IMG/VR virus record: IMGVR_UViG_651053023_000001
Span: 32,001 to 96,000 of that record
DNA length: 64,000 nt
Strand: one strand, 5' to 3'
Source: a virus
Lineage: Duplodnaviria > Heunggongvirae > Uroviricota > Caudoviricetes
Made by a program: the position numbers. This document shows, one piece after another, positions 13,219 to 19,200 of the stretch; positions within the stretch are counted from its first letter, which is position 1; the number at the start of each line of letters is the position of its first letter.

Positions 13219-16200
13219 TTAACAGATTCTACGAGTTGTCATTTGTGACAGTATGCTCGCAATCGTAGTGATTACTACCACCAACTGCTAGCTTTCTTCT
13301 CTCTAGCTTTTCCTTCGCTTTGCAGTAAATCTTTACTTCCTGTAGAAATATTTCTATTTGCATCAGCCTCAGACTGAATTACATCTGTCTTAGCTGCTCT
13401 CTCCTTCAACTCCTGCTCTATAAAATCGTTTTCTCGCTGGACACGAGCCGCTTTTGCTTGCAGTTCGAGTTTCATGCTTTCGAGTTGCAGCTTGCGAAGC
13501 TCATCCTCATAAGCTTGATCTCGCTTCTTGTCATTTGCTAGCTCGGCTTCTCGTTTCGCTCTACGTTCATTTTCTGCAGCAACACGCTGTTTTTCGCGTG
13601 CAGCAGCGGCAGATGCTGCTTTTTCTCTTCTAATACGTTCAGCTTGTGCTTGTTGGCGAATAAGTTCTTTTCTGGCATCCTCAGCTTGCTGCTCTTTAGC
13701 TCGCCCTTCATTTTCCGCTTGAGCAATAGCAGCAATTTGACTTTGCAACGAGTTAGCCAAGGCAGTGCCTACACTAAACGTAGAAAAGATTAGAAATAAA
13801 ATAATTTTATTCATAAATTATTTCTTTTCTGGACAAGTAGCATTTGGCTGAATTCGAGTTTCATTATCTTTAGTTGAAATAAGCACAGCAAGCCCCGTTG
13901 TAAACTGGCATGCTTTACCAACTTGAGTTGAAGTGAACACCTTAGTTCCTTCTTTATAAGTCAGTGAAACACCTTCAACAATTGTTTTATCACTAACCAA
14001 AGAACCAGCCGCTGCACCAAGAGCCGCACCACCAGTACCGCCAGCTACAGCACCCAGTGTCGATGTGCCTTTAACATTATAACCGGCAACGCCCCCAGCA
14101 ACAGCTCCCAGTACCGCACCAAATGTCTGTGCCGCTTCTTTATTAGCTTTATTATCAACTTTCACTTTAGCTGGAAGCACAGAGATAATATTGACTGTCT
14201 TTGTTTCCTGCTTCGAATTCAATTGAGCGGTATCATAAACATCGGCAGCATAATCAGCACCGCTAGATTGACACCCAGAAAGAAGAATTGCAGATACAAC
14301 AAGAGCGCATAAAGTATACTTTTTAGACATAAGAATCATCCCAGAAAAACAAAAACCGGCGAGAAGTTACCACGAGAACGGAAAGTAAACAAGAATACTC
14401 CCATTGACTTATATCAATTAATCAACTTTTTATAAGCTATCCCTAACTTATTGTGTATAGCTGAAAAGTCAGAGACAAGTTCACCATCTGCATTATTTCT
14501 TAAGTTAATAGTTTATTGCTAACTTAATTTATGCATCGACTATTGATATCCATCTTAAAGTTACAATATCCCTCTGCATTATTTTTCATCACAAATAATA
14601 TATCTATTGCACGACACTAACCTGCTCTAATAAATTTGTATTTTTAAGTCGCGAATGCTATCTTTTCGCATCATATTGACCTTTTAATCGTTCAGGCTTA
14701 TAGTTTCGCCGTCGTAGCAAATTCTGCGACCGGGTTTAGCAGCCTGAATGATTGTGCGGACAGCCGCAGATATCCGATATTGCGGTATTTTTGTGTCCGT
14801 AAAACCGCGTTACGCCCAAATTATGGTGGGGCGTGATGGGGAGGCTTCGGCCTGCTGGTTTCACAATCGCCAGTCTGCTAACCCCGTCACGTCCTGCCAC
14901 CTGTTTAGCAGCGGGTAGCAGGTTGTTAAACCTGATTGTGAGGCCGTAACTATGGTTAATGCCAATCCTTGCGCACGCCAAGAATTCATCTGGCGTTTCT
15001 ATTCCTGCAAAAAACACCACTATCACTTCGTCATCGCAGCAACAGAAGACGAAGCACGCTCTCAATTGCCTGATGGCCCCTGCATTTTTACTGCCCGTTT
15101 TTCAACTAACTCGCGCAATTCACTTAGTTACTGGAACCTCCCCTTCTCTGCCGACGTTCAGGGGGGTTTATGAAAAAACCTCTCGTCACCCGTAATGAAA
15201 TAGCCGAAGCGATCGCCCTGCATACAACCTGTATGCCGACACGGGAGATCCCCGGCGCAATTGCCAACTATTTCATGATAACCAGGCGTTTTTATACCCG
15301 AACAGATAAGGCTGTGATCAACAAGCTACTGATAGCCGAGATCAGGGATTATTTGATTGAACAAGGACGTCTACGTTACGCAACAGTGGCAGCAGAAATA
15401 AGAAAGGAGGCACATAGAATGACCGGTAATAATTTGAATGTTGAAAAAACAGCACCTGTTACGTCAGCTACGCCAGCACCAGCCGTGAATATCATCCCCA
15501 ACACCGGAGACACAATCGACAGCCAAACATTGTTGAAGATGGTCAATGAGGCACGCAAGTTATGTGGAGAACCAGAGGTTAGAAACAATAAATTCATCGA
15601 AAAAATACTCGATGAACTTGAAGGTGAATTTTACACAAAAAGTGCAAAATCCCATGGCACAAGGGCTGGGCGCTCTTTTGAGGTCATCACCATGACCTAC
15701 AAACAAGCCCTGCGAGTTGCCGCGCGCGAGTCAAAAGCGGTCCGCCGTTCGCTGATCGACAAACTGGAAGAATTACAGCAGGCAAACTCCCCTACCCCAT
15801 CGATCCCCCAGACATTACCAGAAGCCCTACGCCTGGCTGCCGAGTTAGCAGAACAGAAAATGCAGTTGGAACAACAGCTGGTGGCCGCAGCCCCTAAAGT
15901 CGATTTTGCCGACCGGGTATCAGTGGCCAATGGAATCCTGATCGGGAACTTTGCAAAGGTCGTTGGACTTAAGCAAAACGCCCTTTTCTCATGGTTGCGC
16001 CAGAATGGCATTCTCATGGCTTTTGGAGCGCGCAAAAACGTACCGCGCCAACAGTACATCAACGCCGGGTATTTCACGGTGAAAGAAGTGGTGCTGGATG
16101 ATGAAAATGGCTACCAGATACGGCTGACGCCCCAATTAACGGGTAAAGGCCAGCAGTGGTTAACTCGCAAGCTACTTGATGCTGGTTTGTTAAAACCAGT

Positions 16201-19200
16201 AGCAATAGGTTAACAAAAGAAAAAAACCTGCCAGCAAACTGGCAGGTTTCTGAGCAGATCGTCCAACCCGATCTGGATCGAGTCAGAAAAATTTGCTCTA
16301 ATAAATTTCGTTTTCTAAGTGCAAAGAATCACCATTTCGAGCTGGTGATTGAAGGTTGATGCAAATTTGGAGAAAAAATGCAACAAACATTCAATGCGGA
16401 TATGAATATATCAAACCTTCATCAAAATGTCGATCCTTCAACCACTCTGCCCGTTATTTGTGGTGTTGAAATTACGACCGACCGCGCTGGCCGTTACAAC
16501 CTTAATGCTCTACACAGAGCGAGCGGACTCGGTGCCCATAAAGCGCCAGCTCAATGGCTAAGAACGCTGTCAGCTAAACAGCTCATCGAAGAGCTTGAAA
16601 AAGAAACTATGCAGAATTGCATAGTTTCGTTCGAAGGCCGTGGCGGCGGCACTTTTGCCCATGAATTGCTCGCAGTGGAGTACGCTGGTTGGATTTCTCC
16701 CGCGTTTCGGCTGAAGGTAAACCAGACATTTATCGACTATCGAGCCGGAAGATTACAACCTGCTATTCCGCAGAGTCTCCCTGAAGCTCTCCGTTTGGCT
16801 GCCGACCTGGCAGAGCAAAAGCAACGGCTGGAACAAAAAATGCTTATGGATGCACCTAAAGTCGAATTCGCCGAACGCGTTGCTACCGCCAGCGGGGTTC
16901 TAATCGGCAACTATGCCAAAGTGCTCGGTCTGGGCCAAAACTATCTCTTCACCTGGTTGCGTGATAACGGAATTCTGATCGCAACCGGTGAACGCAGGAA
17001 CGTCCCCAAACAAGAATACATATCCCGTGGGTATTTCACCCTTAAAGAAACCGTGATCGATACAAGCAATGGAATCAGGATTTCTTTCACGACTCGTATA
17101 ACCGGCAAAGGTCAGCAGTGGCTGATGAAGCGATTGCTTGATACTGGTGTGCTGGTACCTGTCGCGGCAACGCGCTAACAGACGTAGTAAGAACCACCAG
17201 CATTGTAATGCTGGCTAAAGTCACTTTCCTGAGCTGTATAACGATGAGCGATTTTACTTTTTCTGGCTATGAATTGGCCTGCTTTGTAACACACTCCGGT
17301 CTATCCCGTAGCGCCGGGCATATCCTGTCGCAATGTGCAAATCTAGCGGCAACAACCAGTGAATACTTCATTCACAAGCCTCACCGCCTGATCGCGGCAG
17401 AAACTGGTTATAGCCAATCAACCGTCGTTCGTGCATTCCGTGAAGCTGTAAACAAAGGAATTCTGTCTGTAGAGATTGTTATCGGCGATCACCGTGAACG
17501 TCGCGCTAACCTGTACCGGTTTACACCATCCTTTTTGGCCTTCGCACAACAAGCCAAAAATGCGCTGATTGAAAGCAAATTAAAGATCTCTTCAGCGGCA
17601 ACCAAGGTTAAAGCTGTTCTCGCTAAGACATTGGCTTTATTTAATTTTTTATCCACACCCCCATGTCAAAATGATACCCCCTCCCCCTGTCAGGATGACG
17701 TGGCAATAAAGAATAAGAAGTCACAAGTTAAAAAAACAGAAAGATCAGTTTCCGGCGGTGCCGGAACGACCAGGCTCAAAAATTTGACTTCCTGGATCGC
17801 TGAGGCAAAAGCAAAGGCTGACAATCTGCGGTTATCCAAAAAACGCGCTCAAAAACATGAGTTCAAGCAGAAAGTAGAGGCGGCAGCGCGGAAATATGCT
17901 TACCTGAAGAACAAGCGTTCTCCTGATATTGGCGGGGTATCAAACTTCGATAATCTGCCGCATTGCATGACGGTAAACGAAGCTCTTAATGCGGTTTTAG
18001 CCAAAAATAAAGATAACGAACAATGGGGTATACCGGCAGGATTCAGAGGGTGATAGATTGCTCTAATCTGGAGTCACCTGGCGTTTTCAGTTTGAGGTCG
18101 GAGATGCAATCTGATTTTTTACAGTTAGCGATCGCTTTTGCAGGATATGTTTGTATTGGCTTCTGTGTATACATGATCAGCCGAAAAATGCTTGTCGATA
18201 TCGACCGCAAAGAACAAGCAGAGGAGATCTTAGAATGGATTTTCTTTGGCGCGGTCTGGCCATTAGGGATCATGTTTGCTGCAACATTTCTTCTGATGTG
18301 GATATTCACCCTTCCAGGTGATTTCTATAGAAAAAAAGCCAGACATTGATACAATCGTTGCGGGTGCTTGAGGCTATCAGCTTCAGGCATTACCCGAAAA
18401 GCAGATAGAAGAAAGCCCCAGATAACATTACGCGTCCTGCAAGACGCTTAACATTAATCTGAGGCAATATCTATGCTTAGCATACGTAGATTAGCCTCTT
18501 ACCGACCAAAAGGTCAAGGAGTAGCAGGCTATGAAGCAGCAAAAAGCGATGTTAATCGCTCTGATCGTCATCTGTTTAACCGTCATTGTGACGGCACTGG
18601 TAACGAGGAAAGACCTCTGCGAGGTACGAATCCGAACCGCCCAGACGGAGGTCACTGTCTTCACAGCCTACGAATCTGAAAGGTAAGAGACCTGGCGGGG
18701 AGAGATCCTCGCCACTCTTCGTGTGTCAGGTATCCTCAATGCACCCTTTCCTCTCCAAATAAAAAAGCTCCCGAAGGAGCTTTAAAATACAAGGGATGAC
18801 TCTTAATCCCACTCAATCCAGTTGTAGACGATACGAAGTGACGGGCGCACAGCGGCAGTCACATCTTCGGTACTAAAGTCGATTGCATCACTGTAGATTT
18901 TGCAGTCCAACATTTCAATTGTTGTAGCAGCTTTTGTCACAGCGTTAACCCCGGAAGATTTGGATTCAGGGGTCGCAGCCATCGTGATATCAACATAGTC
19001 CTTCGCCGCAATGCGATCTTTAATGAACTGAAGAATATCGCCTTCGATAGTCTCCACGCACTGGACCTGGATTTCCCCAGAGTTTCGAATTGGACCGTGC
19101 TGGTTGAACTTCACACCATTCGGACCATAGTCCTCCACATCCTCGCGGGTCATTTCAGGAATTTGCGACGTGCGAACCAGTACGCTGATATCTTCATGGC

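Follow-up and report, generated by a model that had tools for sequence, protein, structure and literature searches.

In bacteriophage P1, the antirepressors Ant1 and Ant2 associate with the repressor C1 in a complex and antagonise repression, whereas expression of KilA kills the host and KilA is dispensable for replication (P1 annotation and literature, with Riedel et al. 1993 for the complex). According to the same annotation, ant is controlled from the operator Op51 and kilA from the operator Op53. Knock-down of ant or kilA by CRISPR interference (CRISPRi) did not reduce P1 plating (PMC10695390). The similarity between the C-termini of Ant and KilA is already known, and the Pfam family PF03374, "Phage antirepressor protein KilAC domain" (ANT), is named after this pair. 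The definition of KilAC, as the domain at the C-terminus of P1 KilA, goes back to Iyer, Koonin and Aravind in 2002 (cited by PMC5944126, PMC9043618 and bioRxiv 10.1101/2024.01.05.574328). Here we describe the ant and kilA genes in a 64,000-nt stretch of a tailed phage genome (positions 32,001 to 96,000 of IMG/VR record IMGVR_UViG_651053023_000001), hereafter the window, and all coordinates below are positions within it.

KilAC also occurs behind other N-terminal domains. The Roi protein of lambdoid phages, annotated as "roi, DNA-binding protein" in phage CUS-3 and also found in Shiga toxin (Stx) phages, consists of a Rha domain and KilAC, the architecture that we propose below for Ant2. Unlike ant and kilA, roi belongs to the nin region instead of an operon for immunity or replication, and its C-terminal domain is 65% identical to both P1 copies. 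More distant from the P1 proteins, with other N-terminal partners and in other genomic contexts, are Gp07 of Staphylococcus phage Phi11 (Bro-N plus KilAC), CreP of Acinetobacter (KilAC alone) and AriS of Listeria (AntA plus KilAC). The KilAC domain of Gp07 on its own causes filamentation and arrest of cell division (PMC5944126). CreP, a toxin that is naturally a stand-alone KilAC, arrests division and co-precipitates weakly with FtsZ (bioRxiv 10.1101/2024.01.05.574328). KilAC of AriS alone inhibits the SOS response, and the N-terminal domain of AriS regulates the phage's own genes (PMC9043618).

We concluded, with a probability of about 0.85, that Ant1/Ant2 and KilA of the window are two members of a domain-shuffled KilAC family, in which a C-terminal module of about 136 amino acids (aa) stands behind different N-terminal modules of the DNA-binding type.

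Results

Ant1 and KilA share a C-terminal KilAC domain

An earlier note on this DNA had described a 347-aa antirepressor-like protein and a 266-aa KilA protein with colinear C-termini and differing N-termini. Both open reading frames (ORFs) were present (Table 1), and composition-adjusted BLASTP of one protein against the other gave E=5e-68, with 51% identity over 204 aligned residues. The core of this alignment was an ungapped block of 136 aa (Ant1 212-347 and KilA 130-265), in which 87 residues (64%) were identical. All three motifs that the note had quoted, PEALRLAA[E/D]LAEQK, PKV[D/E]FA[D/E]RV and TGKGQQWL, were found. Further, both proteins passed the gathering threshold of PF03374 (25.3 bits) with scores above 100 bits, and the matches covered essentially the full length of the model. 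The E-value and the domain scores leave no room for chance or a compositional artefact as the source of the similarity. The block conserved in Ant, KilA and Roi begins about 22 residues ahead of the Pfam model and includes the stretch IPQ[ST]LPEALRLAA..LAEQK, which was predicted to lie within one long helix.

The DNA of the shared block was 62% identical, with 39% identity at third codon positions and a longest exact run of 11 nucleotides. Synonymous divergence (dS) was saturated and nonsynonymous divergence (dN) was 0.30. Because synonymous sites are saturated, the similarity between the C-termini of Ant and KilA indicates an old, purified paralogy and not a recent copy. Recombination between the ant and kilA copies as a cause of instability was considered as well, and was rejected on the basis of this nucleotide identity and the shortness of the exact runs.

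Table 1. Features of the immI and lytic replicon region, in order of position within the window
Feature	Position	Strand	Evidence
C1 repressor operator (counterpart of P1 Oc4/Op51) that heads the c4-icd-ant (immI) operon	14621..14637	+	CCTGCTCTAATAAATTT, 2 mismatches to consensus; aligns with annotated P1 and P7 operators
Sigma-70 promoter-like site, equivalent to P1 P1c4/P51b	14676..14704	+	TTGACC-17-TATAGT, 10/12 matches; position as in P1 annotation
a1/b1 target sites for C4 antisense RNA	14698..14750	+	Rfam RF03163, 54.6 bits (gathering score 46.7)
C4 antisense RNA, translational repressor of icd-ant, P7 specificity type	14819..14904	+	Rfam RF01695, 69.6 bits (gathering score 45)
icd, 73-aa cell-division inhibitor	14952..15173	+	100% identical to P7 Icd, 97.3% to P1 Icd
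Overlap of icd stop and ant1 start	15170-15173		ATGA
ant1, antirepressor Ant1, 347 aa	15170..16213	+	99.1% (344/347) identical to P1 Ant1; PHROG 63 "anti-repressor Ant", E=1e-102
ant2, in-frame internal start, Ant1 residues 84-347	15419..16213	+	ATG after GGAGG; position as in annotated ant2 of P1 and P7
Ant1 aa 109-206, middle domain, probably divergent Rha-type (Phage_pRha-like)	15494..15787	+	hhalign
Ant1 aa 212-347, linker helix and KilAC (PF03374)	15803..16210	+	Pfam ANT match 106.5 bits, aa 234-336, model 1-106 of 108
Terminator-like G+C-rich hairpin between ant and kilA	16222..16251		13-pair stem; T-run after it on minus strand
Three GATC (Dam) sites (GATC at 16257, 16270, 16276)	16257..16279	+	Overlap the -35 (TGGATC, 16274-16279) of the P53/PkilA promoter
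C1 operator (counterpart of P1 OrepL/Op53)	16292..16308	+	TTTGCTCTAATAAATTT, 1 mismatch; overlaps TCTAAT, the -10 of the kilA-repL promoter; present in the P1 and P7 annotations
kilA, 266 aa, opens the lytic replicon operon	16378..17178	+	98.9% (263/266) identical to P1 KilA, 99.2% to P7 KilA
Antisense promoter-like site in the 5' end of kilA, equivalent to P1 PaskilA/P53as	16405..16433	-	TCGACA-17-TATATT, upstream TG, 10/12 matches; position as in P1 annotation
KilA aa 27-123, KilA-N (PF04383)	16456..16746	+	Pfam 75.4 bits (cut-off 23.8)
KilA aa 130-266, linker helix and KilAC (PF03374)	16765..17175	+	Pfam ANT match 111.8 bits, aa 152-254
repL, lytic replication initiator, co-transcribed with kilA	17208..18053	+	97.9% identical to P1 RepL, 98.6% to P7 RepL

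The N-terminal domains of Ant1 and KilA differ

The N-termini of the two proteins, which the note had described as differing, were unrelated, and KilA-N was detected in KilA only. The first 210 residues of Ant1 matched nothing in Pfam or NCBIfam, and aa 109-206 gave no match to Pfam, including Phage_pRha (PF09669), even at E<=10. BLAST connected Ant1 aa 107-208 to the N-termini of KilAC proteins of about 240 aa, for which Pfam has no model in that part. A homologue search with this middle domain of Ant yielded short fragments for the most part, and the domain received no Pfam annotation from it.

We compared a profile of the Ant middle domain with a Rha profile, which was built from the Rha domain of Roi (itself a match to PF09669) and 24 N-terminal regions linked to it by BLAST. 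hhalign aligned the two at 96.3% probability (E=1.6e-9, 88 columns), and the match fell to 79% probability (E=1.5e-5) when the C-terminal 30 columns, which are next to KilAC, were removed. Thus, the middle domain of Ant is probably Rha-like. Its membership of PF09669 is not claimed, because the Pfam hidden Markov model itself gave no match; in Roi of CUS-3, in contrast, Rha scored 36.7 bits and KilAC 113.5 bits. Ant2 (aa 84-347) is therefore described as a Rha-like domain plus KilAC, probably the layout of Roi, and Ant1 probably has the same layout with an additional N-terminal extension of 83 residues. A relationship between the middle domain and KilA-N, hinted at by a weak N-terminal extension of the BLASTP alignment, was rejected, since hhalign gave it a probability of 1.9%.

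The differences between P1 and P7 Ant1 are concentrated in aa 119-178, within the Rha-like domain, and KilAC differs at only 2 positions.

Predicted structure of the KilAC domain

Single-sequence AlphaFold prediction of full-length KilA reached a mean predicted local distance difference test score (pLDDT) of only 34.7. It was superseded by a model of aa 122-266 built with a 112-sequence alignment, which was confident (mean pLDDT 85.9). In the numbering of this model, a 37-residue helix (13-49) is followed by two short helices (55-62 and 66-75), which bear the nearly invariant motifs AK..G and F.WLR. Next come short strands, and after these a beta-hairpin (residues 99-120) and the last helix (residues 122-135). 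Sequence and profile searches of the PDB with KilAC gave no match at E<0.2, and Foldseek of the model against the PDB gave nothing significant. In the viral fold database BFVD, the significant matches were other KilAC or antirepressor models. From the model we infer that the core of KilAC weakly resembles the winged helix of MerR and excisionase proteins and follows a probable oligomerisation helix.

The two KilAC copies are no closer to each other than to Roi

A tblastn search with the C-terminal domain of KilA hit 1287 phage records. The best matches after the P1-type phages were Roi proteins of lambdoid and Stx phages (65-68% identity), and homologues in Staphylococcus phages were about 40% identical. 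A profile search of 1.84 billion representatives detected 5660 proteins at E<=0.001. Over the aligned C-terminal domains, identity was 64.0% between Ant and KilA, 65.4% between KilA and Roi and 64.7% between Ant and Roi; BLASTP of the Roi domain against KilA gave 68%. Thus, by sequence identity, the C-terminal domains of Ant and KilA were not mutual closest relatives, Roi being equally near. When a neighbour-joining (NJ) tree was bootstrapped 300 times, support was 99-100% for each of the Ant-type and Roi-type clades. The order among the three types was a three-way split, in which Ant grouped with Roi to the exclusion of KilA in 46% of the bootstraps and with KilA in 33%.

All of the 110 closest representatives contained PF03374, and their N-terminal partners were Rha (38 proteins), Bro-N (18), AntA (15), KilA-N (5) and ORF6N (5). 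Two variants of Ant1 itself were also found. In one (P0200, 467 aa, on one assembled contig of the Logan collection), KilAC is preceded by an inserted ORF6N domain. In the other (P0201, 370 aa, on 16 contigs of Escherichia coli), ORF6N replaces the Rha-like domain, and both the N-terminal extension of Ant1 and KilAC, which is 91% identical, are retained. The sequences of these variants indicate domain shuffling at work.

The earlier note had called the domain duplicated. If this is taken to mean a local duplication in the P1 lineage, in which the 3' half of one gene was copied onto its neighbour, we consider it unlikely. The two genes are adjacent on the same strand, the shared block is collinear and ungapped, and Ant and KilA are sisters in a third of the NJ bootstraps (33%), so that an ancient duplication stays compatible with the tree. 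However, the saturation of third codon positions, the Roi domain that is as close to each copy as the copies are to each other, the larger share of bootstraps that join Ant with Roi and the recombination of KilAC with at least five N-terminal modules among close relatives all weigh against a local event. With Ant, KilA and Roi equally distant from one another in KilAC and at least five N-terminal modules present among close relatives, the data favour repeated recombination of a mobile KilAC module over a duplication within P1. Ant and KilA thus appear to be old paralogues within an enterobacterial KilAC subgroup that includes lambdoid Roi.

The two genes belong to separately controlled operons of a P1-type phage

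When the region 14300-18400 was compared with phage records by megablast, the P1-type phages phi456, P1, P7, RCS47 and SJ46 matched at 96-98% identity, and the annotated P1 record corresponded one-to-one with the features of the window from Op51 through repL. These sequence relationships identify the window as part of a P1/P7-type phage-plasmid. The region spans the end of an immI operon (Op51, c4 RNA, icd and ant1/ant2) and the start of a lytic replicon operon (Op53, kilA and repL), in which the 347-aa protein corresponds to P1 Ant1 and the 266-aa protein to P1 KilA. KilA differed from that of P1 by three substitutions only (A123T, I233S and T256A). A homologue search with full-length Ant1 returned near-identical P1-type copies only.

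Between ant1 and kilA there are 164 bp, of which 163 positions are identical to P1, and repL, which contains oriL according to the P1 record, begins 30 bp downstream of kilA. As in the P1 kilA-repL replicon, the window keeps the KilA-N plus KilAC layout, Op53, the three Dam sites annotated in the kilA regulatory region of the P1 record, the antisense promoter and repL. Likewise, it has the internal Ant2 start, the icd overlap, the C4 RNA and the Op51 arrangement of P1/P7 immI. The C4 RNA, its targets and Icd are of the P7 type, whereas the Ant1 protein is of the P1 type. On the minus strand, where its T-run lies, the hairpin between ant and kilA would end transcription that started at the antisense promoter-like site in kilA.

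The C1-operator consensus ATTGCTCTAATAAATTT was searched allowing at most 3 mismatches. Nine such 17-mers were found in the window, compared with 0.22 expected by chance. According to the earlier note, each gene was under its own operator. A C1 operator does stand ahead of each operon, but the Op51 equivalent sits 549 bp upstream of ant1 and governs the whole c4-icd-ant operon, and the C4 antisense RNA as well as the overlap with icd at ATGA put further gates on ant expression.

The seven other operator-like 17-mers are at 32321, 35597/35608, 45462, 49087/49136 and 56108. They include an overlapping inverted pair (35597-35624) and a pair on opposite strands (49087-49152).

Mosaic structure of immI and other features of the window

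The immI region (14615-16213) is a P7/P1 mosaic, that is, a recombinant immI. The C4 RNA, the a1/b1/a2/b2 target sites and Icd are in the P7 state wherever P1 and P7 differ, whereas Ant1 is of the P1 type (99.1% identical to P1 and 90.0% to P7). In the megablast alignment, the first position homologous to P1 is 14623, within the Op51 operator. Upstream (13275-14623), simABC of P1 is replaced by an ORF for a coiled-coil protein with a signal-peptide-like N-terminus (13275-13814) and a lipoprotein-like ORF (13818-14339); P7 and phi456 likewise carry non-sim ORFs at this position. Downstream of repL, a type I toxin-antitoxin module of the hok/sok type (18362-18686) is found in place of P1 rlfA/rlfB. 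It consists of a sok RNA (18362-18536; Rfam RF01794, 109.7 bits) and a 51-aa Hok-like ORF (18531-18686). The phage phi456 has the same arrangement, as do some P1-like records, and in one of these records MokW is annotated at this place.

Further, two identical ALIL pseudoknots, a frameshift element of IS3-family transposases, were detected at 51087-51203 and 54653-54769 (119.2 bits each), indicating a pair of IS1203-like copies separated by 3.5 kb. Among plasmids, NC_013370.1 (E. coli O111:H- 11128, 97.9 kb) matched 48500-57500 best, with 75% covered. Three tRNA genes lie on the plus strand at 36282-36354, 36360-36432 and 37867-37939 (Rfam RF00005, 64.7-74.5 bits).

Discussion

The earlier note had proposed that a shared effector domain is deployed by two separately regulated modules. 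One domain in two operons separately controlled by C1 is what we found, and the word "effector" fits the published work on homologues. For P1 Ant and KilA themselves a shared effector domain is plausible by analogy, because KilAC is active alone in Phi11 Gp07, Acinetobacter CreP and Listeria AriS. We give roughly even odds to the more specific proposal that KilAC is a self-sufficient protein- and/or DNA-binding module responsible for the biological effect, with target and timing set by the N-terminal domain and the operon. KilAC would be built from a long, probably oligomerising helix, a winged helix like that of MerR and excisionase, a beta-hairpin and a helix. Ant would be made when control by the C4 RNA is escaped, and would sequester C1 as an Ant1/Ant2/C1 complex. 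Production of KilA, together with RepL, would have to wait until C1 is gone from Op53, and KilA would arrest growth or division of the host.

The main rival to an effector role is that KilAC serves as a shared scaffold for DNA binding and dimerisation, and that C1 binding and host killing reside in the differing N-terminal domains. The predicted fold of KilAC and the annotation of Roi as a DNA-binding protein favour such a scaffold. However, KilAC alone is toxic or otherwise active in the three homologues named above, in CreP even as a naturally stand-alone protein. KilA-N, Rha and Bro-N are themselves predicted to bind DNA, so that a second DNA-binding domain acting as a mere scaffold would be less economical. 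We regard the scaffold as possible but less probable than an effector.

KilA might also be a second antirepressor, which antagonises C1 through KilAC or joins the Ant1/Ant2 complexes and, being expressed from the C1-repressed Op53, generates positive feedback that would commit the phage firmly to lytic growth. KilA has been considered another antirepressor (M. Lobocka, personal communication in PMC8201110), RefSeq names it "anti-repressor", and among P1vir genes the highest expression is reported for ant1 and kilA (PMC8201110). The 64% identity of the C-terminal domains, long helix included, points the same way. On the other hand, the name was given to KilA by homology only, the CRISPRi knock-down of kilA left the plating efficiency of P1 unchanged (PMC10695390), and a divergence of 36% is ample for a change in partner specificity. 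On balance, we think it unlikely that KilA acts as a second antirepressor. More doubtful still is the full form of this idea, in which KilAC with its long helix lets KilA share the partner of Ant or co-assemble with Ant1/Ant2, making KilA a C1-repressed second antirepressor in a commitment switch driven by positive feedback. If it were true, opening of Op53 would lead KilA to remove more C1, which would couple immunity bypass to lytic replication, and arrest of host division would be a second activity of KilAC.

The preferred reading of Ant1/Ant2 and KilA as members of one domain-shuffled family changes little in what is known of P1, since both the KilAC domain and the shuffling of domains in phage regulators have this pair as their founding example. 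The activities reported for KilAC differ between systems. P1 would be convenient for finding the binding target of KilAC, as it offers two diverged copies of KilAC with different N-terminal domains, under separate and well-understood controls and with clear read-outs, namely C1 antagonism and host killing.

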